Shown here: positions 33,271-56,981 of the stretch, in pieces
Layout of the letters: the number at the start of each line of letters is the position of its first letter
Numbering within the stretch: position 1 is the first letter of the stretch
Assembly (NCBI GenBank): GCA_963714675.1
Contig: CAVQPG010000001.1
Coordinates: 44,598 to 108,597, forward strand
DNA from: an uncultured Chloroflexia bacterium
GTDB taxonomy: Bacteria > Chloroflexota > Limnocylindria > Limnocylindrales > CSP1-4
Direction of reading: 5' to 3'
DNA length: 64,000 bases
The notes under the pieces: model-generated
Databases searched by the model: none
The model's input: only the letters and a program-made list of their open reading frames with translations
Told to the model about the DNA's origin: nothing
Position numbers and translations under genes: made by a program

Positions 33271-33323
33271 CCCGCGCGGGGCTGCGGCTCGCCATCCTCG
33301 CGCTCGTCCTCGTCGCGGCCATC

Positions 33324-34307
33324 GTGGTCGCGATGGGCATCGGCGCGGTGAGCATCGCCCCGACGGAGGTGCTGGCCATCCTCGCGGGGCAGCTGGGGCT
33401 GGACCTCGGAGCCGCCTACAGCGAGCGCCAGGAGACCGTGCTCACCGCCATCCGCCTGCCGCGCGTGCTGGCGACGGCGCTGGTGGGGGCTGCCTGGGCC
33501 GTGGCCGGCGTGGCCATGCAGGGGCTCTACCGCACACCGCTCGCGGATCCGGCCCTCGTGGGCATCGGCGGTGGCGCCGCGCTGGGTGCCACGCTCGGGA
33601 CCGCAGCCGCCGTCTCGCTCGGCATCGTGGCCGGCTACGGCGGCACCGTGCTCGTCATCGCGGCGGCCTTCGTGGCGGCATCGGTCGCGGCCTCGGTCGT
33701 GTACCGCGTGGCCTCGTCCTCCGGCCGCGTCGTGGTCGCCACCATGCTGCTGGCCGGGATCGCCTTGACGGCCTTCTTCGGTGCCGTCACGGCCCTGGTG
33801 GTGGCCGCTGGCCGCACGCCCGAGCTGGGCTCGGTGCAGTTCTGGACCCTCGGCTCGTTCGCCGGCATCGTCGGGCGCGACGTGGTCGTGGGCGCGCTGC
33901 TGGTCATCCCCGCGGTCACCGTCCTGTGGCGCGTGGGACCCCGGCTCGATGCCCTGGCCCTGGGCGCGCCCGAAGCCGGCCATCTCGGTGTCGACGTACC
34001 CAGGCTGACGCGCATCGTGAGCGTGGTCTTCGCCCTGCTCACGGCCGTGGCCGTGGCCACCGCCGGCGTCATCGCCTTCGTCGCGCTCATGGTGCCGAGC
34101 CTCGTCCGTGGCTGGATCGGCCAGGCCCATCGCGACGTGGTCATGGGCTCGGCGCTGCTCGGCGGCACGCTGCTGGTCGTCGCCGATGTGCTCGCGCGCA
34201 GCCTCTTCTCGCCCGCAGAGCTCTCCATCGGCGTCATCACCACCCTCATCGGCGCACCCTTCTTCCTGTGGCTGCTGCTGCGTGACCGGGGCCTGCTGGC
34301 CCGATGA
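33324..34307 (+). CDS. hmuU: FecCD-family iron-complex ABC permease (HmuU-like); N-terminus probably extends upstream
   Basis: FecCD core present. The in-frame upstream codons encode TM1 (TRAGLRLAILALVLVAAIVV) but begin with GTA overlapping the hmuT TAA stop (GTAA, where GTGA would be expected), so there is no canonical start. Confidence 0.8.
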   Translation: MVAMGIGAVSIAPTEVLAILAGQLGLDLGAAYSERQETVLTAIRLPRVLATALVGAAWAVAGVAMQGLYRTPLADPALVGIGGGAALGATLGTAAAVSLGIVAGYGGTVLVIAAAFVAASVAASVVYRVASSSGRVVVATMLLAGIALTAFFGAVTALVVAAGRTPELGSVQFWTLGSFAGIVGRDVVVGALLVIPAVTVLWRVGPRLDALALGAPEAGHLGVDVPRLTRIVSVVFALLTAVAVATAGVIAFVALMVPSLVRGWIGQAHRDVVMGSALLGGTLLVVADVLARSLFSPAELSIGVITTLIGAPFFLWLLLRDRGLLAR

Positions 34308-35107
34308 CCTACCGTGCGATCGAGGTCGCCGTCCGCATCGGCGGAGCCAGCCTGCTCGACGGGGTCTCGGTGGAGATCCAGCCCGGCCAGATCGTGGCCG
34401 TGGCCGGGCCGAACGGTGCCGGCAAGACGACGCTGCTGAGCGTCCTCGCCGGTGACCGCCCGCCGTCGGCCGGCGTGGTCACGCTCGACGAACGACCCCT
34501 CGACCAGTGGCCCGGAGGGGAGCTGGCGCGACGCCGCGCCGTGATGGGCACCGATCGTGCGGTGGCCTTTGCCTTCAGCGCCGCGGAAGTGGCCATGCTC
34601 GGTCGGATGCCGCTGCATGGTGGTGACCCGGACGATGCTGACGATGTCGTGATCGAGGAACTGCTCGGAGCGGTCGATTGCGCGGGTCTGGGTGAACGGG
34701 TCTACGCCACGCTCTCCACCGGTGAGCAGCAGCGGGTGAGCCTGGCGCGCGCCGTGGCCCAGGTCACCGATGCCCCCGGTGTGACCCAGCCAGAGGCTCG
34801 CTATCTCCTGCTCGACGAGCCCACCTCCAGCCTCGATCCAGCACACCAGCACACGGCCATGCGCCTGCTCCGCCGGGTCGCCGATGGCGGCCGTGGGGTG
34901 CTCGCCATCGTGCACGACCTGAACCTGGCCGCCGCCTACGCCGATCGCGTGGTGCTGATGCGTGAGGCCCGGGTGGTCGAGGACGGGACGCCTGCGCAGG
35001 TCCTGCGGGCCGACCTGCTGGAGGCGGTGTTCGATATCCCCATGCTCGTCATCCCGCACCCGCAGCTGGCGCACCCCATCGTGATCGCCGAACCGCACGA
35101 GGGCTGA
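34304..35107 (+). CDS. hmuV: heme ABC transporter ATP-binding protein (HmuV-like)
   Basis: Walker A GPNGAGKTT, signature LSTGEQQR, Walker B LLLDEP. Confidence 0.85.
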   Translation: MTYRAIEVAVRIGGASLLDGVSVEIQPGQIVAVAGPNGAGKTTLLSVLAGDRPPSAGVVTLDERPLDQWPGGELARRRAVMGTDRAVAFAFSAAEVAMLGRMPLHGGDPDDADDVVIEELLGAVDCAGLGERVYATLSTGEQQRVSLARAVAQVTDAPGVTQPEARYLLLDEPTSSLDPAHQHTAMRLLRRVADGGRGVLAIVHDLNLAAAYADRVVLMREARVVEDGTPAQVLRADLLEAVFDIPMLVIPHPQLAHPIVIAEPHEG

Positions 35108-35296: not shown

Positions 35297-35372
35297 GCGG
35301 GAGTAGCTCAGTTGGTAGAGCGCTAGCCTTCCAAGCTGGATGTCGCGGGTTCGAATCCCGTCTCCCGCTCCA
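35297..35372 (+). tRNA. tRNA-Gly (anticodon TCC)
   Basis: 76-nt cloverleaf GCGGGAG-TA-GCTC-AGTTGGTA-GAGC-G-CTAGC-CTTCCAA-GCTGG-ATGTC-GCGGG-TTCGAAT-CCCGT-CTCCCGC-T-CCA; anticodon loop CTTCCAA; CCA encoded. Confidence 0.9.
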
Positions 35373-35527
35373 ATCCTCTCTTTCACGCTCGCGGCGACGC
35401 GCTTCCAGCCCTTCCACGGTCCCACCCCGGTGACTGCAAGCTCGGCTGGGCGGCCAGACCAGCCAACGTCTCCGGCTCCCGCCTCGTCGGCGTGACCGCG
35501 GGAGGGACGTGCCTGTCCTGGGCGGGG

Positions 35528-35968
35528 CTACTCCACAAGCCGCACGAAGGCGTAGATCCCCTGGATGACGCCGAAGGCGGGCCACATCCCCCAGATGACG
35601 ACCCAGTAGACAAACCCTTCCTTGCGGAAGCCCATGTCCCGGTCCCACACGAAGATGGGGATGGCCGAGTAAAGGTACGGGACCGAGGCGGCCAGGGCCA
35701 GGACGAAGCCCCACTCCCGGCCAAGGAGCATGCCGATGCTCCCGATGATCTGCAGCGGCGCCCACAGGAGCACGTCGGCCCAGGCAAACCCCTGGTTGAA
35801 GGCGAAGTAGGCCTTCGGGTCGGTTGAACCGGGGTCGCCTCCGTAGACCATCTCGACCGTCCGGGGCGCACGCGGCCGTACGATCGCGACCAGCTGCAGC
35901 GATGCCAGCAGACCGATCAGGACGAGCCCGGCGATGGCCACGACCCACGTCAGCACGGTGACTTCCAT
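35528..35968 (-). CDS. hypothetical integral membrane protein
   Basis: Four predicted TM helices; shares a WAD/LW/PxxGxLL/YxYxA pattern with the neighbouring ORF. Confidence 0.5.
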   Translation of the reverse strand: MEVTVLTWVVAIAGLVLIGLLASLQLVAIVRPRAPRTVEMVYGGDPGSTDPKAYFAFNQGFAWADVLLWAPLQIIGSIGMLLGREWGFVLALAASVPYLYSAIPIFVWDRDMGFRKEGFVYWVVIWGMWPAFGVIQGIYAFVRLVE

Positions 35969-35995
35969 GCCACTACCCCCCTCTATTCCCCCAGA

Positions 35996-36466
35996 TCAGG
36001 CCAGGTCGGCCACGGCTACGCCGATGGTGATGAGGCCGGCCGCAGCCCACACGCTGAGCATCGCCAGACCGAGCCGGACGCTGCCCGGTTCGCCGATACG
36101 GAACCCCCGACGCTGCAGCTCCAGGCGGGTGAGGATGCCGCGACCGGCAAAGTAGACGTACATGCTGCCGCCGATGAGCCCGAGATAGGCCCACGTGGCG
36201 TGGCCGGCGATGAGCAAGATCCCTGCCGCCGGCAGCACCCACAGGACTCCTAGGTCCCAGAGCGCCTCACCCCGGATGTCCGCCCAGTAGACGTCCTCGA
36301 CCGTGTCCTCGCGCTCCACGAGGCTCAGCCGGGCAGCCGTGCCGGGCGCGAACCCTGTCAGGGCCTGGCCGCCCCACGCCAGGAGCCCCAGAACGGCGAT
36401 GGTGATGCCCCATACCAACTCCACAGCGGCCTCCTCAGACGTACTCGGCGGATCCGCCGGAGCCAT
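35996..36466 (-). CDS. hypothetical integral membrane protein, paralog of 35528..35968
   Basis: Similar TM topology and shared motifs (VYWADIRGEALWDLGVLWVLPAAGILLIAG). Confidence 0.5.
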   Translation of the reverse strand: MAPADPPSTSEEAAVELVWGITIAVLGLLAWGGQALTGFAPGTAARLSLVEREDTVEDVYWADIRGEALWDLGVLWVLPAAGILLIAGHATWAYLGLIGGSMYVYFAGRGILTRLELQRRGFRIGEPGSVRLGLAMLSVWAAAGLITIGVAVADLA

Positions 36467-36770
36467 GTTTCGTCAGGTCCCCGAGGACCTCATCGCCGCG
36501 GACGACTTGTCCTCGCCAGCCGCCTGAACGTATGCCAGCACTTCGTCGGCCTTGGCGACTGGCTGCTCGGTCGATGTCCCCGAGCTCGAGTACATCGGGT
36601 GAGCCGTATTCGTGCCGGACGATCGCTTTGATGGTGTCCTCCTCATCCCTCGTCGGCTCAGTGAAGGGGGCCAGCTGCACGCCATCGGCCCCTTCGTCAG
36701 GTGCGGGATCGGATGTACCTAGACACCATAGCTGGACGACGAATGCTCGTGCCTCTGAGCACGGTGCCAC
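36435..36770 (-). pseudogene. N-terminal fragment of an MDR-family quinone oxidoreductase/alcohol dehydrogenase
   Basis: IKAIVRHEYGSPDVLELGDIDRAA and GDEVLGDL...GGSAEYV match MDR N-termini (compare the intact genes at 46115 and 47545); interrupted by out-of-frame stretches; its 5' end is fused to the attR-like arm. Confidence 0.5.
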
Positions 36771-36834
36771 TGCGCTCAGGCGTTTCGGCCTACCAAGCTG
36801 GATGTCGCGGGTTCGAATCCCGTCTCCCGCTCCA
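36755..36834 (+). repeat. attR-like direct repeat, copy 2: 47-nt 3' half of tRNA-Gly preceded by a conserved non-tRNA arm
   Basis: 36788..36834 matches the tRNA 3' half with one mismatch; the upstream CTGAGCACGGTGCCACTGCGCTCAGGCG arm is shared with copies 3 and 4 but not with the tRNA gene. Confidence 0.6.
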
Positions 36835-36914: not shown

Positions 36915-37532
36915 TCAGCCCGTCGGCATCGCGAGGATCGCCTCGAGCGCGGGAGTGGCGCGGTCGAACGTGTCAGCGACCACGTCCGCCGGTGTGCCGA
37001 GGGTCTCATCCTGGAGCCAGGCAGCGATGCCGGCCCGCATGATGGCGACCGTGGCGTGGGCCAGGATCCGAGGCCGCGGGTCGGCCGCGATGTCTACACG
37101 CAGATCGACCGCGACCTCCCTGGCCAGTTCGTCCTCCCAGCGCACCTGATAGGCCAGACCAGCCGCCATCACCGCGGGCTCCCTCGCTCCGACGCGAGCC
37201 TCTGCGCGTACCAGGTCGGGCTCGAAGTAGGCGGCGGTCAGGGCCAGGAGCCCCCGCCGAACGGCAGCGATCGTCGGCTCATCGGGCGGCCCTTCCGCGA
37301 GGGCCACATGGAGCGCTTCCAGCTTGCCCGCGGGGTCCACGATGAAGGCCTCGTCCTTGCTCTCGAAGTAGCGAAAGAACGTGCGGCGGGAGACGTTCGC
37401 CTCCGCCGCGATGTCATCGATGGTGGTGGCCGCGTAGCCGCGCTCCTCGAACAGGCGCATCGCCGCCCGTGCCAGCGCCAGCCGCGTCTGCAGCTTCTTG
37501 CGGGCGCGCAGCCCTGTCGCCTCGGTACCCAT
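36915..37532 (-). CDS. TetR-family transcriptional regulator
   Basis: TetR HTH (RLALARAAMRLFEERGYAATTIDDIAAEANVSRRTFFRYF); divergent from the MFS gene. Confidence 0.85.
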   Translation of the reverse strand: MGTEATGLRARKKLQTRLALARAAMRLFEERGYAATTIDDIAAEANVSRRTFFRYFESKDEAFIVDPAGKLEALHVALAEGPPDEPTIAAVRRGLLALTAAYFEPDLVRAEARVGAREPAVMAAGLAYQVRWEDELAREVAVDLRVDIAADPRPRILAHATVAIMRAGIAAWLQDETLGTPADVVADTFDRATPALEAILAMPTG

Positions 37533-37551
37533 GGCCGAAGCGTAGGGCGTC

Positions 37552-37603
37552 GACACTCTGGTGTCAAAGGACATCTTAGTGTCAAATGGCACTGTGATGT
37601 CAA
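37552..37603. promoter_or_regulatory. candidate TetR operator / divergent promoter region
   Basis: Relatively AT-rich stretch with the palindrome GACACTCTGGTGTC and three TGTCAA motifs spaced 17-18 bp apart, between the divergent TetR and MFS genes. Confidence 0.4.
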
Positions 37604-37704: not shown

Positions 37705-39411
37705 ATGGCCGCCAGCGTCATCCAACGCGGCGTACCCACGCCTGATTTCTCGGATCGCTACCTCACGCTCGCCCCGCGCGCGCTGCGCGGGGTCCTCGCC
37801 AGCCTCGCCCTGGTCATGCTTACCGCCTCGCTCAATTCGACGGCGGTCGGCACGGCGCTGCCCCGCATGGTCAGCGACCTCCGGGGCAACGATCTCTATG
37901 CCTGGGTCTTCACCGTCTATCTGCTCACGATGACCGCCACCATGCCGTTGTGGGGCTCCCTGTCCGACCGGTTCGGGCGGCGGCCGGTCCTGTTCACCGG
38001 ACTCGCCGTCTTCCTGGGGGGCTCCGCCCTGTGCGGGCTGAGCCAGGAGATGTGGCAACTGGTCGTCTTCCGCGGCATCCAGGGCCTGGGCGCCGGTGCC
38101 ATCGTGCCGGTGTCACTGGCCATCATCGGCGATCTCTTCCCACCCGCTGACCGCGCTCGCTACCAGGCGGCCTTCAGCTCCCTGTTCGTCCTGGCCTTCC
38201 TCATCGGCCCCACCGTCGGAGGCGTCCTGACCGATTCCGTCAGCTGGCGGTGGGTCTTCTACATCAACCTGCCCATCGGCCTGTTCGCACTCGCGGTCAT
38301 GTGGCGCTTCATGCCACAGCTCAAGAGCAGCGCCCAGGTGGCGCGCTTCGACGCCCTGGGGGTCGTCCTGTTCGCGGCCGCGATCGTGCCCCTGCTCGTG
38401 GGCATCCGGAATCTGCCCGATGGGACCTTGACCGATCCCACAGTCGGAGGGCTGATGCTTCTTGGTCTCCTCATCGGGATCCTCTTCCTCGCGGTGGAGT
38501 GGCGAGCCGAGTCGCCGATCATCCCCGTTCGCCTCTTCCGTGACCGGACGTTCGCGGTCGCATCCGCGGTGGTGCTGCTCGGCGTGGCCGGATTGTTCAT
38601 CGCGATCGTCTTCCTACCCCGCTACTTCCAGCTGGTCCACGGTGCGAGCGCGACCGAGTCCGGCTGGCAGATCATGACGCTGCTGATGGGACTCATCGTG
38701 GGCGCCGTGGGCGCCAGCCAGATCGTGGCCCGGACGGGCCACTGGAAGGTGCCGCTCCTGTCAGCGATGGTCGTCGGCGCCGTCGGCATGCTGCTGCTCT
38801 CGGGCCTGCACGCTGACTCGTCCATGCCGGTCGTCTGGAGCGCCATGTTCCTGACGGGCCTGGGCCTCGGACCGATCAGCGCGGTGCTGACCGCGGTGGT
38901 GCAGACGACCTCGCCCCCGGCCGTGCTCGGGGTCGCGACCAGCACCCTGACCTTCTTCCGCCAGCTCGGAGCGTCGATCTGGCTGGCGGTGGGAGGCTCG
39001 ATGTTCTCTGCCACCTTCCGCGAGCAGTTGCCGAACCAGCTGGTCGCGAACGGCGTCCCGGCGGACGTGACCGCGGGCCTCACCACTGGCTCAGGGGCAG
39101 TGGCGTCCGAGGGGACGGCCACCGTCGGCGACCTCGGCGCGGCCATCCTCGGCAACCTTCCCGACGAGGCTCGGCCCGCGATCGAGCCGTTCATCGGAGG
39201 GATCGTGGCCGGCATGCACGAGGCCTTCAGCCTCGCGAGCGGCTCGGCCTTCTGGCTCGGGATCGGTGCGGTCGTGGCCGCGTTCCTGGTCCTGCTTCCG
39301 CTCCCCGAGCAGCGACTCCCGACGGAGCGACTCGCCGAGATGCGGGGTCGAGCTCGGGACGATGGACCCACCCCTTCGACGCCCGATCCGGTGGCGGTGC
39401 GGGGCAGCTGA
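37705..39411 (+). CDS. MFS transporter, DHA2 (14-TMS drug:H+ antiporter) family
   Basis: 14 predicted TM helices and MFS motif A-like GRRPVL; perfect GAAGGAGG RBS before ATG 37705 (the ORF-track start at 37561 is rejected). Confidence 0.85.
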   Translation: MAASVIQRGVPTPDFSDRYLTLAPRALRGVLASLALVMLTASLNSTAVGTALPRMVSDLRGNDLYAWVFTVYLLTMTATMPLWGSLSDRFGRRPVLFTGLAVFLGGSALCGLSQEMWQLVVFRGIQGLGAGAIVPVSLAIIGDLFPPADRARYQAAFSSLFVLAFLIGPTVGGVLTDSVSWRWVFYINLPIGLFALAVMWRFMPQLKSSAQVARFDALGVVLFAAAIVPLLVGIRNLPDGTLTDPTVGGLMLLGLLIGILFLAVEWRAESPIIPVRLFRDRTFAVASAVVLLGVAGLFIAIVFLPRYFQLVHGASATESGWQIMTLLMGLIVGAVGASQIVARTGHWKVPLLSAMVVGAVGMLLLSGLHADSSMPVVWSAMFLTGLGLGPISAVLTAVVQTTSPPAVLGVATSTLTFFRQLGASIWLAVGGSMFSATFREQLPNQLVANGVPADVTAGLTTGSGAVASEGTATVGDLGAAILGNLPDEARPAIEPFIGGIVAGMHEAFSLASGSAFWLGIGAVVAAFLVLLPLPEQRLPTERLAEMRGRARDDGPTPSTPDPVAVRGS

Positions 39412-39435
39412 CCTGATCGACCCCGGACCTCACTC

Positions 39436-39473
39436 GCGTGGACGGCCCCGCCTCGATGGCAGGCCGTCCACGC
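39436..39473. terminator. bidirectional terminator hairpin between convergent MFS and ATPase genes
   Basis: Perfect 12-bp inverted repeat GCGTGGACGGCC/GGCCGTCCACGC with a 14-nt loop. Confidence 0.5.
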
Positions 39474-39568
39474 GCTCTGCGGCAGCACCGCTCGGTTCGT
39501 GTCGCATCTCCTTGCCGACTTCGCAAGCTGCTGGGTCGGCGAGCCGGTGTCGTCCATCCGGCTGCGAG

Positions 39569-41917
39569 TCACACCGACGCGGTCACCGGTGCGGACGCGG
39601 CGGGGTGGTCATCGCCGAGCGCCAGGTAGAGCTCCTCCTCCTGCGCCATGTGCAGCCGCAGGATGGCGTCCAGCCCGTAGAGCACGCGCCGCAGGTCGTT
39701 GAGATCCTCGGGCGCCGGCCCTTCCTCGGGCAGCTCGCCCACCATCCGGTCAGCGAGACGGATGAGGTGGAAGATCTCCGTGTGGGTGCGGTGCAACGCC
39801 GAGGTCAGATCGTCGCTCCGTGCCGCTTGTGCGAGCATGGGGAAGATCTCGCGGTCCTCGTGCTCCTCGTGCGGCACCAGCGTCTCGATGAGGAACGAGC
39901 GGGCATCGGCCAAGCGTGCCATGGCCTCAGCGGGAGACAGGTCCCCGAGGGCATCCGCGAGGGAGCGCAATCCAGCGATGGCCGGCGCAAGGTCGCGGTG
40001 TTCGGCCTGCAGACGCGCACTGAGATCGCCCCAGCCGGGGATCCTCGGTGCGCGCTCGACGCCACCGGTGAGGGCTCGCAGGGCGTTGAGGATGACGATG
40101 ACGTCGATGGCCTCCTGGACCAGAGCGCCAGCCACCGGCTGCAGGAAGCCCGCCGCCGCGACGAGCATGGCGGCGATCGACAGCCCCATGCCGATGACGA
40201 CCGACTGAACGGCGATGTGGCGAGCTCGCTGGGCGATCCGGATGCCCTCGGGGAGCCGGTCGAGTCGGTCGACGGTGATGACCACGTCGGCGGCCTCCGA
40301 GCTGGCTGTGGCCCCGCGGGCGCCCATGGCCACGCCGACGTCCGCGCCCGCGAGCGCTGGCGCGTCGTTGATGCCATCGCCGACCATGACGAGTACGCCA
40401 TCGGCCTCCCGTCGCTCCCCGATCACGGCATCGACCTTGTCGGCAGGGGTGCGCTCCGCGAGGACATTGTCGACCCCGATCGCGGCTGCCACGAGGTCGG
40501 CCACGCCGTAGTGGTCGCCGGTCACCATCACGACACGTCGCACACCGACCCGGCGGAGCGAGCGGATGACGCGAGGGGTCTCGGGCCTGATGGGATCATC
40601 GAGGACGAGGGCGCCCACCAGGACCCCGTCCGCGGCGACGTACACGCTCGTGGCCCCCTCCAGGCTGACGCGACGCCGCACGTCGCGCGCCCAGGGCGGC
40701 AGGGACCTCCCGCCGCTCGCAAAGTCGGCGGTACCGGCCAGGACGCTGACGCCAGCGACCGTCCCGGAGACGCCGGCTCCAGGCAGCTCGGTGGCGTCGA
40801 CGGGCAGTGTCAGCGCCACGCCACGCTCCCGCGCACCGCCCACGATGGAAGCGGCCAGGACGTGGGGCGAGACCTGTTCGAGCGAGGCCGCGAGGGCGAG
40901 GACCTCCTCCGGCGTTCGGTCCGGCGCCGTGACCACCTCGGCGAGGCGCGGCCGACCCGCCGTCAGGGTGCCCGTCTTGTCGAAGAGCATGACCCGGGCC
41001 CGGGCCAGGGTCTCCAGGGCTCCGCCGCCCTTGACGATGATGCCGCGCTTGGCCGAGCGACTGATACCCGAGACGATGGCGATGGGTGCCGCCAACAGGA
41101 GCGGGCAGGGCGTGGCCACCACGAGGACGGCCAGGGCTCGTACGGGATCTCCGGAGACGAGCCAGGCGATGCCGGCGAGGACGAGCGTGAGCGGTACGAA
41201 GAGGATCGCGTATCGATCAGCCATGCGCACGAAGGGGGCCTTGGAAGTCTGGGCCTCCTTGACGAGGCGGACGATGCCGGCGTAGGTGCTGTGCTCTGCG
41301 GTGGCCGTGGCGAGCAGGTCGAACGGCGCCCCGGCGTTGACGGTCCCGGAGCTGACGGGGTCGCCGGCCTCGCGCGTGGCCAGGCGGGCTTCACCGGTGA
41401 GGGCCGATTCGTCGAGGACGGCGGGGTCGCCCATGACCGTGCCGTCCACGGGGACCACCTCGCCCGGCTTGACGAGGAGTCGGTCACCTACCGACACATC
41501 AGCGATCTCGCGGTCCTCGATGCCATCGGCTCGATAGCGATGGACGACACGAGGCGCGCGGGAGACGAGCGCGGAGAGCTCCCGGTTGGCACGTCCGGCG
41601 GCATAGCGCTCCAGCCACTCCCCGGTCGCGAGCATGACGCCGATGACGGCCGCGGCCAGCGCCTCTCCGAGCAGCAGCGCACCGCCGATGGCCAGCACGG
41701 CGATGAGGTCGACGCCGGCCTCCCGGTGCAGGAGATCGCGGATGATCGAGATGGCTAGCCAGGCGCCGACCAGCAGCGAGGGGATGGTCCAGGACCACGT
41801 CGCCGCGGCTTCGTCACCGGCGAACGAGAAGGCCAGGCCCAGAAGGAGGCCACCGAGCGTGAGGGGCAGCAGGAGGCGCGCCGTATAGGCGTCCGATCTC
41901 TCGAGTACTCCGCCCAT
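39569..41917 (-). CDS. P1B-type heavy-metal-translocating ATPase with C-terminal hemerythrin/HHE cation-binding domain (P1B-5 subtype)
   Basis: TPCP in the metal-binding TM helix, DKTGT phosphorylation site, GDGINDAPAL hinge; no N-terminal HMA domain; C-terminal ~170 aa carry HxxxE/HHE motifs (LVPHEEHEDREIFPML, HRTHTEIFHL, LRLHMAQEEELY). Confidence 0.85.
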   Translation of the reverse strand: MGGVLERSDAYTARLLLPLTLGGLLLGLAFSFAGDEAAATWSWTIPSLLVGAWLAISIIRDLLHREAGVDLIAVLAIGGALLLGEALAAAVIGVMLATGEWLERYAAGRANRELSALVSRAPRVVHRYRADGIEDREIADVSVGDRLLVKPGEVVPVDGTVMGDPAVLDESALTGEARLATREAGDPVSSGTVNAGAPFDLLATATAEHSTYAGIVRLVKEAQTSKAPFVRMADRYAILFVPLTLVLAGIAWLVSGDPVRALAVLVVATPCPLLLAAPIAIVSGISRSAKRGIIVKGGGALETLARARVMLFDKTGTLTAGRPRLAEVVTAPDRTPEEVLALAASLEQVSPHVLAASIVGGARERGVALTLPVDATELPGAGVSGTVAGVSVLAGTADFASGGRSLPPWARDVRRRVSLEGATSVYVAADGVLVGALVLDDPIRPETPRVIRSLRRVGVRRVVMVTGDHYGVADLVAAAIGVDNVLAERTPADKVDAVIGERREADGVLVMVGDGINDAPALAGADVGVAMGARGATASSEAADVVITVDRLDRLPEGIRIAQRARHIAVQSVVIGMGLSIAAMLVAAAGFLQPVAGALVQEAIDVIVILNALRALTGGVERAPRIPGWGDLSARLQAEHRDLAPAIAGLRSLADALGDLSPAEAMARLADARSFLIETLVPHEEHEDREIFPMLAQAARSDDLTSALHRTHTEIFHLIRLADRMVGELPEEGPAPEDLNDLRRVLYGLDAILRLHMAQEEELYLALGDDHPAASAPVTASV

Positions 41918-42330
41918 GCCCTGCTCTCCGTGGTCTCGTCGTGTTGGCGCCAGTCGATCGAGACTATCGACCAGGCAGCCGGCATGCGAGGGCTGCGTGG
42001 ACCCTCACCGGTGTGCTCGGTGGCAGGTCACGGGCCGTCGCGGTCCCGATGGTCATCGCCCTCCGTGCGAACTCATGGAGCAGTACCGATGGCCTGGCCG
42101 ATGACGTACGTCACGAGCGCGGCCGCTCCACCGAGTGCGAGTTGGAGTAGGCCGCAGCGGACAGGCGAGCGTTCGGTCAGCAGTCTGGTCGCACCGGCCA
42201 ACCGAGACCCGGCAGATGTCAGTCGTGCCAACCTGCGGCTCTCCCGGGACATGCCGGATGACCCTGTGACATCTCAGTGTTCGATGACACATTCAGCGAT
42301 GAGGTCACACGCAACGGTCACCGGGGGTCC

Positions 42331-43440
42331 ATGAACGCCAGCCGTCTACTCGAGAAGCTCGAGGACTTCCGCTTGCTGCCCGTCTTCGTCATCGTGGCCA
42401 TGGCGGTCGGCATCGCCCTCGGCAAGGCACTCTCGATCTCCGACTTCGAGCTGACCCCACCCATCGACGCCATCAAGTCCATCGCGGGGGGCACGTTCGA
42501 TCCGAGCGTGGCGGGCCTCATCAGCCTGGGCGTGCCGGTCGGGCTCTTCCTGATGATGTACCCGGCCATGACGAACGTGCGCCTGGGCGAGGTCGGCCAG
42601 GCCTTCCGCTCGCCGCGCCAGCTCGGGGTCGTGCTCCTCTTCAACTACCTCGTCGCACCGTTTCTCATGCTCCTGCTGGCGAATGTCTTCGTCAGCGATC
42701 CCGAGCTCCACACGGGCCTCGTGCTCTACGGTCTCGCGCCCTGCATCGCCATGGTCATCGTCTTCACGTATCTCGCCAAGGGCAACGTGCCCATGGCCCT
42801 CGTCTTCGTGGCCATCAACTCGGTCGCCCAGATGCTGCTCATCCCGCTCTATGCGCGCCTGCTCATCGGCACCGTCGACTTCGACGTCCTCCTCGTGGGC
42901 GAGAGCGTCCTGTTGTATCTCGGGCTGCCGCTGCTTGCGGGCGTGCTCACCCGCATGGCCGTCGTGCGCCGTGGAGGCGAGGCCGCCATGGAGCGCCTGA
43001 AGCCGGGCTTGAACGCGCTCTCGATCATCGGACTGCTCTTCACGCTCATCGTCATGTTCTCCCTCAAGGGCGACCTCATCCTCGAGCGTCCCGCCATCGT
43101 GGTCGAGATGGCCATCCCGATGACCATCTTCTTCGGGGTCATGTTCTTCGTCGTCCTGCTCATCGGCTCGCGTCTCGGGTTCGGATACGCGGACGGCGTA
43201 GCCGTGGCCTTCAGCACGACGGGACGCGACTTCGAGATCGCCATCGCCATCGCCATCACGGCCTTCAGCCCGACGGTCGCCCTGGCCACGGTCGTGGGCC
43301 CGCTCATCGAGGTCCCGGTCATGCTCTTCCTGGTGTGGGCCGCGATGCGCTTGCGGCCCCGACTCTTCGGGGGCTCGGCCGGCGCGGGCGAGGACCTGTC
43401 CGCACCCGGCTCGGCGAGACCGGGGACCATGCGCTCATGA
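42331..43440 (+). CDS. ACR3-family arsenite/antimonite efflux transporter (BASS-related)
   Basis: ACR3-type 10-TM fold; start at MNASRLLEKL. Confidence 0.75.
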   Translation: MNASRLLEKLEDFRLLPVFVIVAMAVGIALGKALSISDFELTPPIDAIKSIAGGTFDPSVAGLISLGVPVGLFLMMYPAMTNVRLGEVGQAFRSPRQLGVVLLFNYLVAPFLMLLLANVFVSDPELHTGLVLYGLAPCIAMVIVFTYLAKGNVPMALVFVAINSVAQMLLIPLYARLLIGTVDFDVLLVGESVLLYLGLPLLAGVLTRMAVVRRGGEAAMERLKPGLNALSIIGLLFTLIVMFSLKGDLILERPAIVVEMAIPMTIFFGVMFFVVLLIGSRLGFGYADGVAVAFSTTGRDFEIAIAIAITAFSPTVALATVVGPLIEVPVMLFLVWAAMRLRPRLFGGSAGAGEDLSAPGSARPGTMRS

Positions 43441-43523
43441 TCGCCCCTCGAGCCGAGCCGCCGGCCTGTCGGTTCTGCCTGGGTCTGGGGAGACGATATC
43501 CGGACAGTGCCACTCGGATCTCC

Positions 43524-43600
43524 AGCACGGTGCCACAGCGCGACACGGAGGCGGCCTTCCAAGCTGGATGTCGCGAGTTCGAGTCTCGCCTCCCGCTCCA
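43524..43600 (+). repeat. attR-like direct repeat, copy 3: tRNA-Gly 3' half with compensatory T-stem substitutions
   Basis: 43554..43600 GCCTTCCAAGCTGGATGTCGCGAGTTCGAGTCTCGCCTCCCGCTCCA; the T-stem reads GCGAG/CTCGC versus GCGGG/CCCGT in the resident tRNA; the arm motif AGCACGGTGCCAC is conserved. Confidence 0.6.
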
Positions 43601-43763: not shown

Positions 43764-43843
43764 CAGAGCACGGTGCCACTGCGCTCAGGCGTCTCGGCCT
43801 TCCGACCTGGATGTCGCGCGTTCGAATGCCGTCTCCCGCTCCA
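43764..43843 (+). repeat. attR-like direct repeat, copy 4: arm plus a degenerate tRNA-Gly 3' half
   Basis: About 90% identical to copy 2 over ~80 nt; the T-stem carries two unpaired substitutions. Confidence 0.55.
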
Positions 43844-43933: not shown

Positions 43934-44668
43934 ATGCCGCAGCCGGCAGAGGGCGATCACCCGGGCGTGGCCCGACGCTACGAGAGGATCCTCGAACCAC
44001 AGGTGCTCGAAGCCATGCGTCGTGGCTGCAACCTGATGAACAAGGGCATGGTGCCGTTGTGGCGGCTGGGCCTCGGTCGCACGATGAACAGCTGGCCCGA
44101 AGGCGCCGGCCGGATGCTCGTGCTCGAGCACGTGGGTCGGCGGAGCGGTGCCGAGTACCGCACGCCCGTCGACTTCTCGAGGGTCGGTGATGACCTCTAT
44201 TGCCTGGCCGCGTTCGGCGAGAAGACCCACTGGTACCGCAACATCCTGGCCGCACGCGAGTTCGCGGTATGGCTCCCCGATGGGCGCTGGCTGGCCAGCG
44301 CCGAAGATGCCTCGGATGACCCCCGGCGCCTGGACCTCGTGCGCCAGGTCCTGATCGACTCCGGCTTCGCGGCCCGGCTCATCGGGCTCGACCCAGGCCA
44401 GCTGTCGGACGAAGACCTCGACCGGGCCACCTCGACGTACCGACTCCTGCGCATCCACCCGCTGCGCCCGGAAGCCTCGAGCGATGGTCCCGGCAGCCTC
44501 GCTTGGGTCTGGGCGTTCAGCGCGATCGCCATCCTGGTCGTGGTACTTGGCTGGTGGCTTCGTGGTCGGCGCGATTGGGCGCGAGGACGCAACCTGGACG
44601 GCAAGACGAAGGGCGCCACGGATCATCGCGTCGTCGTGACGCGCTGGCGGACCGAAGATGTCGGCTGA
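43934..44668 (+). CDS. deazaflavin (F420)-dependent nitroreductase family protein (Ddn/DUF385) with C-terminal TM helix
   Basis: GRRSGAEYRTPVDF and WYRNILAAREF motifs; GGAGGGGG RBS. Confidence 0.8.
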   Translation: MPQPAEGDHPGVARRYERILEPQVLEAMRRGCNLMNKGMVPLWRLGLGRTMNSWPEGAGRMLVLEHVGRRSGAEYRTPVDFSRVGDDLYCLAAFGEKTHWYRNILAAREFAVWLPDGRWLASAEDASDDPRRLDLVRQVLIDSGFAARLIGLDPGQLSDEDLDRATSTYRLLRIHPLRPEASSDGPGSLAWVWAFSAIAILVVVLGWWLRGRRDWARGRNLDGKTKGATDHRVVVTRWRTEDVG

Positions 44669-44680
44669 CACAATGGCTGC

Positions 44681-45340
44681 GTGACGATCCCGGTCTCGCC
44701 TGCCCCTGCCGCTGCCGTCTTCACCTTTGCCGGCGTCGGTGTCCGCCTGGGGGCCAGCCAGGTCCTCCACGGCATCGATCTGGAGATCCCGGCGGACGGC
44801 ATCACGGTGGTGCTTGGCCCATCAGGGTCGGGCAAGTCGACGCTGACGCGACTCACCAACCGCTTGCTTGACGCCTCGGCCGGAACGGTCAGCCTGCGCG
44901 GCACCGACGTCCGTACCCTGGATGTGCTCGAGCTGCGCCGCACGGTGGGGATGGTCTTCCAGCGCCCGACGCTCTTCGACGGCACCGTCCGCGACAACCT
45001 CATCGCCACGCACGTCGAGGAGCCCGACGCCCACGAGGAGATGCTCGATGCCGTCGGGCTGGAGGCGACCTTCCTCGGGCGCATGGGGGCCACGCTCTCT
45101 GGCGGCGAGGCCCAGCGCGTCTGCCTTGCCCGTGCGCTGCTGATGCGGCCGGACGTGCTGGTGGCGGACGAACCCACGGCCTCCCTGGATCACGAGGCCA
45201 CGTTGGCATTGGAGAGCCTCGCTCGCGGCCTCGCCGACCGAGGCGTACCGATCTTGTGGGTCACCCACGATCTCGGGCAGGTCGAGCGCATCGCCGACCA
45301 GCGCGTGACGCTCGAAGCCGGACGGGTGGTGCCCACGTGA
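44681..45340 (+). CDS. ABC transporter ATP-binding protein (FetA/YbbL-like iron export)
   Basis: Walker A GPSGSGKST, signature LSGGEAQR, Walker B LVADEP; paired with a FetB-like permease. Confidence 0.8.
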   Translation: MTIPVSPAPAAAVFTFAGVGVRLGASQVLHGIDLEIPADGITVVLGPSGSGKSTLTRLTNRLLDASAGTVSLRGTDVRTLDVLELRRTVGMVFQRPTLFDGTVRDNLIATHVEEPDAHEEMLDAVGLEATFLGRMGATLSGGEAQRVCLARALLMRPDVLVADEPTASLDHEATLALESLARGLADRGVPILWVTHDLGQVERIADQRVTLEAGRVVPT

Positions 45341-46110
45341 GCGGACCGGTCGAGCTGGTCGGTGCCATCGCCTCCGGGCTGCTCGTACTGGTCGCCGTCG
45401 GCATCAGCTGGTGGGCCGGCCTGCGCCTCGAACGCGACCTCATCACGGCCGCGCTGCGTGCTGCGGCCCAGCTGGCGCTCCTGGGCCTCGTGCTGGTGGC
45501 CATCCTCACACCGGGTCAACCGCTGCTCCTGTCCTGGCTGTGGGTGGCGGTGATGATCCTCTTCGCGGCCTGGACCGTGCAGCGCCGGGTGCCGAACGTG
45601 CCCCGCATCTGGCTGCTGTCGATGGGCGCCTTCGCGGCTTCAGCCGTGGTCACCCTGGGCATCCTCTTCGGGGCGGGCGTCTTCCCCCTCGACAGCACGA
45701 CCCTGGTACCCCTGGCCGGCCTGATGATCGGCAACTCCATGACCGCGACCGTGCTGGTCGCCCGCCGCATCACGACCGAGTTCAAGGACAAGCGCCTCGA
45801 GGTCGAGGCGCGGCTGGCGCTCGGCCAGCCCTCGTCGGAGGCCGCGGTGCCCTACCTGCGCGAGGCGTTGCGGACAGCCCTCATCCCGCAGATCGAGACG
45901 ACCAAGGCCGTGGGCATCGTCTTCCTGCCGGGCATGATGGTCGGCCTCCTGCTCGCGGGGGTGACGCCGCTCGATGCGGTGCAGGCACAGCTCGTGATCA
46001 TGTACCTCGTGCTCGGCTCGGTCGCGGTCACCACCAGCGTGGTGGCGCTGGGTATGCGCCGCATCCTCTTCACGCCAGCACACCAGCTGCGGCATCTGGT
46101 GAAGGAGTAG
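45337..46110 (+). CDS. ABC transporter permease (FetB/YbbM, UPF0014 family)
   Basis: Eight-TM UPF0014 fold; GTG start overlaps the upstream TGA (GTGA). Confidence 0.8.
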   Translation: MSGPVELVGAIASGLLVLVAVGISWWAGLRLERDLITAALRAAAQLALLGLVLVAILTPGQPLLLSWLWVAVMILFAAWTVQRRVPNVPRIWLLSMGAFAASAVVTLGILFGAGVFPLDSTTLVPLAGLMIGNSMTATVLVARRITTEFKDKRLEVEARLALGQPSSEAAVPYLREALRTALIPQIETTKAVGIVFLPGMMVGLLLAGVTPLDAVQAQLVIMYLVLGSVAVTTSVVALGMRRILFTPAHQLRHLVKE

Positions 46111-46114
46111 CCCG

Positions 46115-47077
46115 ATGCGAGCCATCGTCCAGCCGGGGTACGGCCCGCCCGAATTGGTCGAGCTGCGTGACATGCCGACCCCCAGCCCGGGGGACGGCCA
46201 GGTGCTCGTTCGGGTGCGCAGCTCGTCGGTCAACGCCGCTGATGTCGAGGTCCTCGACGGCTTCTTCTTCAGCCGCATGGTCGCGCCCATCCGGCCGGCC
46301 CATCGGGTGGTCGGCTCCGACGTCGCCGGGGTGGTCCAGCGCGTCGGCGCCGGGGTGACCGACCTGGTGCCAGGTGACGAGGTCATGGGTGACCTCTCCG
46401 AGCACGGCTATGGCGCGTTCGCTGAGTACGCCGTCGCGCCAGCCGAAGCCGTCTGCCGGCTGCCGGTCGGGATCTCACTCGAGGACGCCGGCGCCGTGCC
46501 TTCGGCCGCGTGGGTGGCCATCAAGGGCGTGCGCGACGTTCAGCCGGGCGAGCGCGTCCTGGTCAACGGCGGCGGCGGCGGCATGGGCACGTTCGCCGTG
46601 CAGATGGCCAAGGCGCGCGGAGCTCACGTCACCGGCGTGGACAGCGCGGCCAAGCTGGAGCTCATGCGCTCGCTCGGTGCCGACGAGGTCATCGACTACC
46701 GCGCCGACGACGTGGTCTCCCTGGGCGACCGCTATGACATGGTGCTCGATGTCTTCGCCCGCCGCTCGGTGGCCGAATGGCAGCGAGTCCTGGCGCCGAC
46801 CGGGAAGTACCGCATGGTCGGCGGATCGGCCCTCCGTATCCTGGCGGGCTTCCTGCGTGGACGCATGCTCTCGCGGGCCGATGGACAGAGCCTGGGCCTG
46901 CTCATGGGCTGGCCGCAGACGCGCCTGGACATGGAGGAGACGAACGCGCTGCTCGAGAGCGGACAGGTGCGACCGGTGATCGGGGACCGCTTCCCGCTGG
47001 AGGAGGCCGCGACGGCCCTGCGGCAGGTGAAGGATGGTCGTGCCATGGGCAAGGTGGTCGTCGACATCGGGGCGTGA
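46115..47077 (+). CDS. NADPH:quinone oxidoreductase / zinc-type alcohol dehydrogenase-like (MDR family)
   Basis: MRAIVQPGYGPPELVEL...GGGGGMGTFAVQMAK Rossmann motif. Confidence 0.85.
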   Translation: MRAIVQPGYGPPELVELRDMPTPSPGDGQVLVRVRSSSVNAADVEVLDGFFFSRMVAPIRPAHRVVGSDVAGVVQRVGAGVTDLVPGDEVMGDLSEHGYGAFAEYAVAPAEAVCRLPVGISLEDAGAVPSAAWVAIKGVRDVQPGERVLVNGGGGGMGTFAVQMAKARGAHVTGVDSAAKLELMRSLGADEVIDYRADDVVSLGDRYDMVLDVFARRSVAEWQRVLAPTGKYRMVGGSALRILAGFLRGRMLSRADGQSLGLLMGWPQTRLDMEETNALLESGQVRPVIGDRFPLEEAATALRQVKDGRAMGKVVVDIGA

Positions 47078-47150
47078 GCGCGAGGCCGTTCGCGCAGCTG
47101 ACGGGGGGCTGGGCCGGGCCTGTTGCCTGGGCCCCAGAAGCGCAGCTGTC

Positions 47151-47330
47151 CCTCCCGGGACGCCACGCGACCGGCGGGCCCTCGGTGGCCCCCAGCCGTC
47201 CCACCCGGGACGCCACGCGACCGGTGGGCCTTCGGTGGCCCCCAGCCGTCCCACCCGGGACGCCACGCGACCGGCGGGCCCTCGGTGGCCCCCAGCCGTC
47301 CCACCCGGGACGCCACTCGACCGGTGGGGC
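47151..47330. repeat. 50-bp tandem repeat, about 3.5 copies, each bounded by GGGACG...CGTCCC inverted ends
   Basis: Unit GGGACGCCACGCGACCGGCGGGCCCTCGGTGGCCCCCAGCCGTCCCACCC starting at 47157, 47207, 47257 and 47307 (partial); copies 1 and 3 are identical, copy 2 differs at two positions; the region is intergenic. Confidence 0.8.
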
Positions 47331-47544
47331 GGCCGAATGGGTCTGCTCAGCGGCCGTTTGGCCCTCCCCAGGGGACAAGCAGCGAACGAGACCGTGCCCG
47401 ACGGTCGAGTGGCGTCCCATACGGGACGACTCGGGACCAGGGGCGCTCAGCTTGCGGGACCGGCCGATACCGGGCATCAGCCCTGCTGGACCGGCCGCGG
47501 ACCAGGCCACCTGAGCCGATCTCACGAATCGCGGAGCGGAGCGG

Positions 47545-48522
47545 CTAGGAGCCCGAGATCGTGATGACGGTCTTGCCCTGCGCGTGACCGCTGGCCACGT
47601 GCGCCACGGCTTGGGGTCCCTCATCGAGCGAGAAGGTGCGATCCATGGCGGGCCTGAGCTTGCCCTCATCGACCAGCGCCTTGAGGGCCAGCGCATCAGC
47701 CCCGGTGCTCTGGGAGATGAAGGGCCGGAGCTGCTGCTTGTTGATGATCGAGGTCGCCAAGGCCCTGACCACGTTGTCGACCCCGCCGAACCAGCCGCTC
47801 ACAGAGGCGCCGTTCGAAAGCAGCTTGCCCTCGGGTGTGAGCAACTGCCGCATCTGCCCCATGGGGTAGGCGGCCACATTGTCGAGGATGCGATCGTAGC
47901 GCTCGCTGCTGCCGATGTGATCCTCGGTCTCGTAGTCGATCACGTAATCGGCCCCGAGCGAACGCACCATCGCGACGTTGCGGGTGCTGCACACGCCAGT
48001 GACCTCCGCGCCCATGGCCTTCGCGATCTGGACCGCGAAGCTGCCGACACCGCCCGAGGCGCCGATGACGAGCAGCCGCTGCCCGGGCTCGATCCTGAGC
48101 TGGTCGCGCAGCGCCTGGAGCGCTGTCTGGGCTGAGACTCCCAGGGCCGCGGTCTCGGCGAACGAGAGCGACGCCGGCTTGGGTGCGAGCTTGTCGGTCT
48201 TGGCCACTGCGTACTCCGCGAACGCTCCGGTGCCGTTACCGAACACCTCATCACCGACCGTCACCCCCGAAGCCGAGCTGCCCACGGCCTCGACCACGCC
48301 GGCGAGGTCCATCCCCGGGATGGGGTTCCTCGGCCGGCGCAGGCCGAACATCACGCGCATCGACTTGGGCACCCCGCGGATCACATGGCAGTCACCGATG
48401 TGGATCGACGCCGCGTGGACCCGCACGAGCACAGCGTCCTCCGGCAACTCCGGTCGATCGACCTCACGAACCGACAGCACCGCCTCCGGCTCGCCGTAGA
48501 CCTCCTGGAACAACGCGCGCAT
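47545..48522 (-). CDS. NAD(P)-dependent alcohol dehydrogenase / quinone oxidoreductase (MDR family)
   Basis: MRALFQEVYGEPEAVL...GASGGVGSFAVQIAK; AGGGAG RBS (the ORF-track N-terminal extension over the repeat is rejected). Confidence 0.85.
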   Translation of the reverse strand: MRALFQEVYGEPEAVLSVREVDRPELPEDAVLVRVHAASIHIGDCHVIRGVPKSMRVMFGLRRPRNPIPGMDLAGVVEAVGSSASGVTVGDEVFGNGTGAFAEYAVAKTDKLAPKPASLSFAETAALGVSAQTALQALRDQLRIEPGQRLLVIGASGGVGSFAVQIAKAMGAEVTGVCSTRNVAMVRSLGADYVIDYETEDHIGSSERYDRILDNVAAYPMGQMRQLLTPEGKLLSNGASVSGWFGGVDNVVRALATSIINKQQLRPFISQSTGADALALKALVDEGKLRPAMDRTFSLDEGPQAVAHVASGHAQGKTVITISGS

Positions 48523-48593
48523 CTTCGCTCCCTTTCCACGAGTTCCCGGCGAGGTGACACGACCACACGGTCGTTCGTGGGGTCGAGACCAGC

Positions 48594-56561: not shown

Positions 56562-56981
56562 CTACGTGTTCGATGGCATGCGCACGCACCTCGCCCTCTC
56601 GAAGTCCGCGCTACGGGCATCCTCTACCTGCCTCAAACACGTAGGCTTGGGCCGTTCGGCCATCCCTCGCGGGCCGTTCGTCGGTGCGGGACGCGTCCGA
56701 GTCAGCGGAACAGCGTGAGCGCGTCGTCGGCCGTCGCCGGATCCGGTGGCAGCTGCGTAGGTCACGGCCACCCCATCATCCATGATGTAGCAGCCGCCCT
56801 TGACCGGACAGGAGGTGCAGCCGTCATCGACGAAGCGGATGGCCCGCAGCCGGCCCCGTGCGACCAGGGTCTCGAGCATGCCTTCGAGCGCCGAATCATC
56901 GATATGGAGCACGGAACTCAGGTCGGACAGGCACATCGGCTTGCCCGCATCGCGGATCGCCGCCAGCACCGCCGACAGCAT
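56562..56981 (-). CDS. feoC: FeoC-like winged-helix protein with extended C-terminal tail
   Basis: N-terminal ~75 aa resemble FeoC (wHTH plus Cys cluster CTSCPVKGGC); the start overlaps the feoB stop; the 65-aa tail is unconserved. Confidence 0.55.
   Translation of the reverse strand: MLSAVLAAIRDAGKPMCLSDLSSVLHIDDSALEGMLETLVARGRLRAIRFVDDGCTSCPVKGGCYIMDDGVAVTYAAATGSGDGRRRAHAVPLTRTRPAPTNGPRGMAERPKPTCLRQVEDARSADFERARCVRMPSNT

Follow-up and report, generated by a model that had tools for sequence, protein, structure and literature searches.

The 64,000-nucleotide stretch of DNA analyzed here (the window), from contig CAVQPG010000001.1 of an uncultured Chloroflexia bacterium, encodes on its minus strand, at positions 39569-41917, a P-type ATPase that bears a hemerythrin-like domain at its C-terminus. 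This combination is confirmed, far beyond chance, and the protein, judging from its sequence, is almost certainly a member of the P1B-5 subgroup, that is, a common, ordinary representative of a pump type on record since 2010-2013 and no new kind of system. We further propose that the pump would export Fe2+ or Ni2+ under the influence of a regulatory tail and that its gene would be the cargo of a small cassette; taken jointly, these three propositions form a reading that we consider fairly likely to be right.

The gene is a single open reading frame (ORF) with an ATG start that encodes 782 amino acids (aa). A Shine-Dalgarno sequence, GGAGAG, is located at 41924-41929, 6 nt 5' of the ATG, and the start position is matched by the aligned N-termini of orthologues. 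The GC content by codon position (0.77/0.50/0.87) fits a genuine gene in a window of 69% GC; by the same measure, an overlapping 830-aa ORF on the plus strand was rejected as a shadow of the ATPase gene. Exact protein look-up found no identical copy of the 782-aa protein. The translation includes VVATPCPLLL, FDKTGTLT, MVGDGINDAPALAG, VPHEEHEDREIFPML, LHRTHTEIFHL and LRLHMAQEEELY. An earlier note, made from the letters of this stretch alone, had called the product a P1B-5-type ATPase that lacks an N-terminal HMA domain and ends in a soluble, hemerythrin-like domain of ~170 aa; the TPCP, DKTGT and GDGINDAPAL-type motifs and the hemerythrin motifs that it quoted are all present in this ORF, and each of these assignments is borne out by the domain, signature and tree analyses given below.

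In Pfam, residues 121-291 match E1-E2_ATPase (E = 1.8e-44) and residues 308-526 match Hydrolase (HAD; E = 6.8e-21). The NCBIfam model TIGR01525 (ATPase-IB_hvy) yields 524.8 bits at a cut-off of 346.25, and the Cd/Zn-type subfamily model TIGR01512 is likewise above its cut-off; the equivalog models for CopA and ZntA are missed by far. There is no Pfam match to an HMA domain, and no CxxC was found upstream of the ATPase core, where only ~12 residues precede the first transmembrane (TM) helix, MA. The catalytic motifs comprise T174GE (174-176), D313KTGT, S350 and H352 of the N-domain, T466GD (466-468) and G513DGINDAP (513-520); among these, DKTGT, TGE, TGD and GDGINDAP are invariant across 119 family sequences.

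The subgroup assignment draws on the signatures of the TM helices. Conservation was followed in the 119 sequences and in a second set of 12 sequences that are 48-59% identical to the query and include a protein encoded on plasmid pSymA of Sinorhizobium meliloti. Invariant in both sets are T269-P-C-P272, the metal-site signature at the kink of helix M4 (codons at 41102-41113, minus strand), the phosphorylation motif D313-K-T-G-T317 (40967-40981, minus strand), S572, G576 and M584, and Q601, E602, I604 and D605 of the M6 signature QExID, which in the query reads Q601-E-A-I-D605 (40103-40117, minus strand). The complete M4 motif, A268-T-P-C-P-L273, shows no variation within the family and is the same in the pSymA protein. 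When group consensus sequences were compared, the TPCP group and the query shared ATPCPL in M4, QSV.vGMGLS (that is, QS..GM.LS) in M5 and QEaID (QExID) in M6, in contrast to the SPC group (P1B-4 type), with ASPCA, KQNi and HEGST, and to the CPC group (Cu), with CPCA, kqNlfwa..yN and M..SS; this comparison was made against sequences, not against a published motif table. In a neighbor-joining tree of 85 P1B cores from public genomes, proteins with (T/S)PCP form their own clade, apart from those with CPC, SPC and CSC, and the query is nested in a (T/S)PCP sub-clade with a ~250-aa extension after the GDG motif; the tree is a distance tree without bootstrap, and its reference panel was labeled only by the M4 motif, the N-terminal CxxC and the C-terminal extension. 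Thus, the M4 and M6 signatures and the placement among P1B subgroups, both of which the earlier note had proposed to check, assign the protein to the (T/S)PCP clade, apart from the Cu (CPC with M..SS), Zn and P1B-4 (SPC with HEGST) pumps.

An AlphaFold2 (AF2) model built on the 119-sequence alignment (predicted local distance difference test, pLDDT, 81.7; predicted template-modeling score, pTM, 0.71) contains eight TM helices (MA, MB and M1-M6), the A, P and N domains and a four-helix bundle at residues 629-767. The membrane helices span residues 2-32, 36-63, 70-82/86-119, 229-255, 258-267/271-290, 554-588 and 594-616, with M4 broken at TPCP (between 267 and 271). The predicted TM metal site would be formed by Thr and Cys of ATPCPL in M4, Gln and Ser of QS..GM.LS in M5 and Gln, Glu and Asp of QExID in M6, and would hold more oxygen and nitrogen donors than the sites of Cu or Zn pumps. 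In a Foldseek search with the full model, the PDB structures that fit best are those of CopA and ZntA and that of the P1B-4 pump 7qbz (CoaT); the best PDB matches are at most 30% identical to the query and, therefore, no P1B-5 structure has been solved.

The structure 7qbz, of sCoaT, is among the best PDB matches both by sequence search (E = 3e-79) and by Foldseek (E = 2.6e-35), and the P1B-4 exporters of Fe2+ and Co2+ that it represents (sCoaT; PfeT/CtpD-type) resemble the query in fold, topology and the absence of a classical HMA domain; their export of divalent Fe and Co would be a further point of likeness. They differ in having SPC in M4 and HEGST in M6, where the query has TPCP and QExID, in lacking a hemerythrin tail, and in overall sequence (~29-30% identity).

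The soluble tail beyond M6 (residue 616) comprises 166 aa. Residues 634-766 match the Pfam Hemerythrin model PF01814 with E = 5.2e-12 and 46.8 bits, at a gathering score of 25.3, so that the hidden Markov model search suggested in the earlier note returned both this family and E1-E2_ATPase. The hemerythrin-like bundle of residues 629-767 is encoded at 39617-40033 (minus strand). Modeled in isolation by AF2, the tail gives a confident prediction (pLDDT 90.5, pTM 0.83) with helices at positions 10-40, 43-80, 84-108 and 117-148 of the fragment. Seven candidate di-iron ligands are present (H640, H683, E687, H712, E714, H756 and E760), in the pattern H / HxxxE / HxE / HxxxE. Across the 12 and the 119 sequences, H640, H683/E684, H712/E714 and Q759/E760 of the tail are invariant, and E687 and H756 are conserved in at least 90%; residue 709 is H in the close clade of the query and S elsewhere. 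A profile of the tail sequence retrieves a single solved relative, the di-iron protein YtfE/RIC (E = 4e-4), with the His and Glu columns aligned. These observations indicate a tail that is predicted to fold as a hemerythrin-type four-helix bundle with a putative di-iron site. Weighing on the other side, a Foldseek search of the isolated tail against the PDB found nothing at E ≤ 0.001; its top matches are generic helical bundles, and the hemerythrin (Hr) domain of FBXL5 ranks only 25th of 41, with a template-modeling score of ~0.5 and a non-significant E of 2.5-3.2.

Escherichia coli YtfE/RIC (PDB 5fnn, 7bha), whose four helices likewise form a bundle, with a di-iron site that is labile, shares with the query tail the H...H(x3)E...H columns; it differs in being a soluble, stand-alone Fe-S repair protein, and the match is weak (~22-24 bits over ~95 residues). 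A hemerythrin-like domain at the C-terminus is carried by "some" P1B-5 members (PMC9388753). It was first described on a P1B ATPase, as a di-iron Hr-like domain, in the Acidothermus cellulolyticus P1B-5 protein A0LQU2 (Traverso et al. 2010, Biochemistry, as cited in PMC9388753) and, according to that review, binding of two Fe atoms and of O2 has been shown spectroscopically only for the tails of A. cellulolyticus and S. meliloti. The variant ligand motif reported for P1B-5 tails is H-HxxxE-HxE-HxxxxD (PMC9388753). Compared by this reported motif, the query tail resembles that of A. cellulolyticus in its ligand pattern and departs from it in the last ligand pair, which in the family of the query is H756-x3-E760 (H.AQE) in place of HxxxxD.

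The closest characterized counterpart is apparently Nia (SMa1163) of S. meliloti, a P1B-5 ATPase (Zielazinski et al. 2013, Metallomics, as cited in PMC4932525 and PMC9388753). The S. meliloti 1021 pSymA record, which is unannotated, encodes at 637,586-639,775 a full-length protein that is 49.5% identical to the query over residues 35-767; this protein is taken to be Nia because Nia is the pSymA P1B-5 ATPase of the literature (PMC4932525). The two are alike in architecture, in the absence of an N-terminal metal-binding domain, in M4 (ATPCPL), M5 (QS..GM.LS) and M6 (QEAID) and, within the tail, at the EH, PHE..D, THxEI and HFAQE positions. They come from different phyla, and Nia, encoded by a symbiotic megaplasmid, is expressed in nodules, whereas the query gene lies in a proposed tRNA-Gly cassette together with a major facilitator superfamily (MFS) pump and an ACR3-like gene.

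The architecture, which the earlier note had considered rare, is in fact widespread. In a single-sequence search, 120 of the 120 best matches (73-97% identity) combined PF00122, PF00702 and PF01814 in ~780 aa, and the same was true of all 120 best matches (54-97% identity) of a profile search; the named sources among the best matches are metagenome-assembled genomes of Limnocylindrales/Chloroflexota and Actinomycetota. Full-length relatives with 50-58% identity occur in Acidimicrobiia, Nitrosotalea, Alpha- and Gammaproteobacteria and Chloroflexia, and full-length copies were found on at least 80 plasmid or chromid records of Cupriavidus, Burkholderia, Rhizobium, Streptomyces and Rhodococcus. 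A search with the tail only retrieved 877 representatives of clusters at 50% identity, 355 of them with E ≤ 1e-10. Because of these match counts, the description as rare is incorrect. Many of the short (160-200 aa) matches of the tail search may be stand-alone forms of the hemerythrin domain; stand-alone hemerythrin-domain proteins are also encoded 5-9 kb from the ATPase in two relatives (L082, 20949-21671; L092, 12977-13429).

By analogy with characterized relatives and from the gene context, we consider it rather likely that the protein acts in Fe2+/Ni2+ efflux with a regulatory tail. The pump would run a Post-Albers cycle and export a borderline-hard divalent cation from the cytoplasm, with Fe2+ as the most likely substrate and Ni2+ as the second. 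The tail would bind a di-iron center that reports the cytosolic iron and/or O2/redox state, and would tune pump turnover as a cis-acting regulatory domain on a flexible linker (residues 617-628). According to PMC4932525, Nia is induced by Fe2+ and Ni2+, and both metals accumulate in the mutant. In the literature, the P1B-5 substrate is labeled "Ni2+/Fe2+(?)" (PMC10246665, PMC13460109), in agreement with the earlier view that the substrate and the hemerythrin domain's role are poorly defined.

The surroundings of the gene in the window are chromosomal and, by Pfam and NCBIfam annotation, metal- and oxygen-themed: they include a PBP2-FecCD-ABC importer (32350-35107), a FetA/FetB-like pair (44681-46110), a Fur-family gene, cydABDC and FeoB. 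In an Acidimicrobiia relative with 58% identity, PBP2-FecCD-ABC, the ATPase, VIT1 and F420H2_quin_red follow one another in order, with the same families as in the window, and VIT1 adjoins the ATPase in the relative L082. More generally, a Peripla_BP_2-FecCD-ABC importer, VIT1 and a F420H2-dependent quinone-reductase-like protein recur by the ATPase (L091, 3053-9585; L082, 9089-9826; and, in the window, 43934-44668 in addition to the importer). This recurrent linkage, across loci that are 58-88% identical at the ATPase, may reflect a conserved iron-homeostasis gene set; the neighbors concerned, for both import and export of iron, recur across phyla and, therefore, Fe2+ is favored as the physiological substrate.

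Several observations count against this assignment. The substrate and the direction of transport are carried over from a relative that is only 49.5% identical; deletion of nia in another S. meliloti strain caused no sensitivity to Ni, Cu, Zn, Cd or Pb (PMC4932525); the gene neighborhoods of the plasmid-borne members are heterogeneous; and, in the AF2 model, the linker that would set the contact between tail and pump is of low confidence (pLDDT < 50 at 619-622). Conceivably, the substrate is not iron but mainly Ni2+ or Co2+, or else Zn2+ or Mn2+, with the iron-related neighbors being coincidental. Nia is named a nickel-iron ATPase and responds to Ni2+ (PMC4932525, PMC10246665), P1B subgroups commonly overlap in their substrates (PMC13460109), the Cd/Zn-type model TIGR01512 exceeds its cut-off, and a gene for a CDF transporter adjoins the ATPase gene on a Cupriavidus plasmid. 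Yet, in the loci examined, no Ni- or Co-specific partners (NikR/RcnR, urease, hydrogenase or cobalamin genes) stand beside the ATPase, the recurrent neighbors are of the Fe type (FecCD importers, VIT1 and FetAB-like genes), and the M6 signature is unlike those of the Zn (P1B-2) and Co (P1B-4) types, so that we regard a substrate other than iron as improbable.

A related question is what the tail would sense. It might serve mainly as a sensor of O2 or peroxide, and hence of redox state, rather than of iron availability, such that oxidation of the diferrous center would switch the pump to expel Fe2+ under the threat of Fenton chemistry. In bacteria, fusions of Hr domains to MCP, GGDEF and HD-GYP outputs serve as O2/redox sensors (PMC9388753); the same review describes fast autoxidation of the A. 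cellulolyticus tail and a stable oxy form of the Nia tail; and O2-related genes are located near the ATPase, namely, cydABDC in the window, plasmid-borne genes for peroxiredoxin and for universal stress proteins and, in L091 and L092, AhpC/OsmC. However, the ligand set departs from that of canonical O2-binding Hr, with HxE in place of HxxxH, the closest solved relative by sequence, YtfE, is a labile di-iron protein and no O2 carrier, and the review itself calls the role unresolved (PMC9388753). A predominant role in O2 sensing seems somewhat unlikely; redox sensing and iron sensing by the tail are not mutually exclusive.

As to regulation of the gene, a leader or promoter region at 41918-42110 (minus strand), which includes the Shine-Dalgarno sequence, aligns with L081, L084 and L082, three relatives in which ~110-190 nt 5' of the ATPase are kept, in L084 and L082 even next to a different upstream gene. 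Within this leader, an imperfect inverted repeat, CCAGGCAGCC-N10-GGCTGCGTGG, is found at 41971-42000; it is the sole regulatory candidate and may be an operator, with a second arm that is not conserved in L082. No dedicated metal regulator for the ATPase was identified, and a scan of 39300-42400 for sigma-70 promoter and terminator consensus sequences found nothing. A riboswitch or leader RNA of the NiCo/czcD type was rejected since an Rfam search of the window at gathering thresholds returned tRNA only; a permissive Rfam search of 41850-42350 gave one chance miRNA match (E = 1.3) and no family for the leader.

The genomic setting of the ATPase gene includes an array of tRNA-Gly repeats. An intact tRNA-Gly(UCC) gene at 35297-35372 (plus strand; detected by ARAGORN, and by Rfam with 73.9 bits), which also stands beside the block of genes described below in L081 and L084, anchors the att-like array. 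By a search for repeats, the 47 nt at the 3' end of this tRNA, from the anticodon loop to CCA, were found three more times, all in direct orientation and with ends at 36834, 43600 and 43843, and each of these partial copies is preceded on its 5' side by a common non-tRNA arm, AGCACGGTGCCACWGCGC; for the four copies of the core and the three copies of the arm, 0 are expected by chance. Copy 2 (36758-36834, plus strand), which consists of the arm AGCACGGTGCCACTGCGC and the 47-nt core (tRNA positions ~30-76), and copy 3 (43524-43600, plus strand), consisting of arm and core, form the left and right boundaries, respectively, of a 6.7-kb segment B. Copy 3 shows compensatory changes in the T-stem (GCGAG/CTCGC), and a homologous distal copy closes the block in L081. 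Copy 4 (43767-43843, plus strand) combines the arm with a decayed core.

Segment B thus holds four genes between its bracketing copies. Besides the ATPase, these encode a TetR-family regulator with a MftR-like C-terminal domain (36915-37592, minus strand; Pfam and NCBIfam), which is syntenic in L081 and L084 and probably represses the adjacent pump; a DHA2/EmrB-type MFS efflux transporter of 568 aa (37705-39411, plus strand; Pfam MFS_1, E = 4e-56; NCBIfam TIGR00711); and, divergent from the ATPase, an ACR3-like transporter of the SBF family (42277-43440, plus strand; Pfam SBF, E = 1e-44), which reaches 247 bits with the acr3 model TIGR00832, under the cut-off of 282.8. Between the intact tRNA gene and copy 2 lies segment A, a 1.4-kb cassette (35373-36757). 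Its two ORFs, 35528-35968 and 35996-36466 on the minus strand, encode small membrane proteins for which neither Pfam nor NCBIfam gives a family match.

In the relatives L081 and L084, the ATPases are 97% identical to the query and chromosomal synteny is shared with the window. The order in L081 is tRNA-Gly, TetR-MFS-ATPase and the same arm and core, without segment A and without ACR3; both are absent from L084 as well, and only the window has the ACR3-like gene. The region that holds it, 42245-43506, is missing from L081; microhomology of ~8 nt (GGCTCTCC / GGATCTCC) at the edges of the indel points to illegitimate recombination, not site-specific insertion. The third-codon identity to L081/L084 is 0.91/0.85 for the ATPase and 0.86/0.77 for the MFS gene, compared to 0.55-0.72 for the flanking genes, and sliding identity amounts to 0.93-0.99 vs 0.70-0.83, with the peak on the ATPase; given this contrast between the ATPase and its flanks, the ATPase would, therefore, have been exchanged more recently than its surroundings. 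A metagenome contig of 1,180 bp, L095, matches the window at 98% identity and links the right end of segment A, 36754-36834 with arm and core, to its left end, 35326-36477. This junction suggests an excised circle or a tandem copy and a mini-element that is mobilized in trans; therefore, the core seems, in the population, to be active in recombination.

These observations are compatible with a scheme in which the ATPase gene would reside in a 6.7-kb integrase-less cassette, bounded by att-type tRNA-Gly scars in a tandem array, and exchange of the cassette between related lineages would be more recent than that of the chromosome around it. That the ATPase is the cargo of such a cassette or island is plausible but unproven, and we lean toward it. 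A number of results weigh against it: among the ~60 ORFs of the 64-kb window, Pfam and NCBIfam detected no integrase, transposase, relaxase or phage family; the GC content is flat, at 0.68-0.72 across the block vs ~0.69 for the window, with a typical GC3 of 0.87; L084 has tRNA-Gly-TetR-MFS-ATPase without the distal scar; the third-codon identity of TetR (0.72/0.66) is no higher than that of the best-conserved flanking genes; and the search for an excision junction of the ATPase-bearing segment B gave none. Of the earlier designation as island cargo, therefore, the part that stands is the tRNA-Gly with its bracketing 47-nt repeats and a shared ancestry more recent than that of the flanks; the missing mobility genes, the flat composition and the occurrence of the block at the same site in syntenic genomes do not fit it.

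The same results give substance to the alternative that the ATPase gene is a resident of the chromosome and by chance stands at a hot spot for integration at tRNA-Gly, where the scars stem from other small elements and the elevated identity arose via homologous recombination or selection. TetR-MFS-ATPase occupies the same site in all three syntenic genomes (the window, L081 and L084), and no empty site was seen; apart from the absence of an integrase, of a compositional deviation in GC or GC3 and, in L084, of the distal scar, the tract of high identity fades from the ATPase through the MFS gene to TetR instead of ending at the scars, and the sole excision-type junction found concerns segment A. 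On the other hand, in both the window and L081, the block is bracketed exactly by tRNA-Gly or core copies with the common non-tRNA arm, the third-position identity of the ATPase (0.85-0.91) relative to its flanks is hard to explain by selection alone, and, at 77-88% protein identity, the ATPase and its leader occur in unrelated contexts, such as beside VIT1, near dnaA and elsewhere, so that the gene does move. We accordingly hold residency to be a real possibility, somewhat short of an even chance.

Genomic islands that integrate into tRNA genes, and integrase-less cis-mobilizable elements (CIME-type), have att cores that extend from the anticodon loop to the 3' end of the tRNA. The proposed cassette array resembles such elements in that an intact tRNA stands at one end, direct repeats of the 3' 47 nt delimit tandem modules, the scars have a common non-tRNA arm, and the content of the modules varies between close relatives. 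It is unlike them in that the 64-kb window holds no integrase, excisionase or transfer genes and in that its composition is native. In two other close relatives, a tmRNA (L083, 18607-18978) and a tRNA-Leu (L085, 5458-5543) lie 4.5-6.3 kb from the ATPase; no tRNA-derived direct repeats were found near the ATPase in these two, and the att signature is confined to the tRNA-Gly lineage. A more far-reaching, and rather doubtful, possibility would unite the cassette and transport readings: a tRNA-Gly array of integrase-less, att-delimited cassettes, mobilized in trans, would shuttle a Fe/Ni exporter and a drug-efflux module among soil Chloroflexota and Actinomycetota, with the tail as an iron/O2-gated switch that would coordinate Fe2+ efflux with the adjacent FecCD import and FetAB and VIT1 export.

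Other features of the window were also recorded. The 343-aa ORF at 48594-49625 (minus strand) combines a Fur-family DNA-binding domain (residues 13-133) with an S-adenosylmethionine methyltransferase domain (146-320); its counterpart in L084 consists of separate genes for FUR, ZnuA and a methyltransferase, and the ORF in the window looks like an in-frame fusion left by precise loss of znuA. FeoB is split into a G-domain protein of 176 aa (58688-59218, minus strand) and a membrane part of 567 aa (56981-58684, minus strand) with few bases between them; the split may be natural, or it may stem from a stop mutation or from a sequencing error. At 47143-47328, a 50-nt unit is repeated ~4 times in tandem with 94-97% identity, between convergent genes for zinc alcohol dehydrogenases/quinone oxidoreductases (46115-47077, plus strand, and ~47545-48500, minus strand); the whole stretch 46111-48604 is missing from L084.

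The hemerythrin-tailed P1B-5 architecture is, then, no curiosity: it is abundant and phylogenetically broad, in soil metagenomes as well as on megaplasmids. The motifs ATPCPL, QS..GM.LS and QExID define the metal site at the level of sequence and, together with the seven di-iron ligand candidates, offer a guide for mutagenesis; with no P1B-5 structure in the PDB, it would be worthwhile to solve the structure of a member of the family that behaves well. If the cassette reading is right, the locus would illustrate, on a small scale, how a tRNA-Gly array of integrase-less cassettes carries cargo. The gene linkage that favors Fe2+ bears on a substrate question that recent reviews still mark with "(?)".

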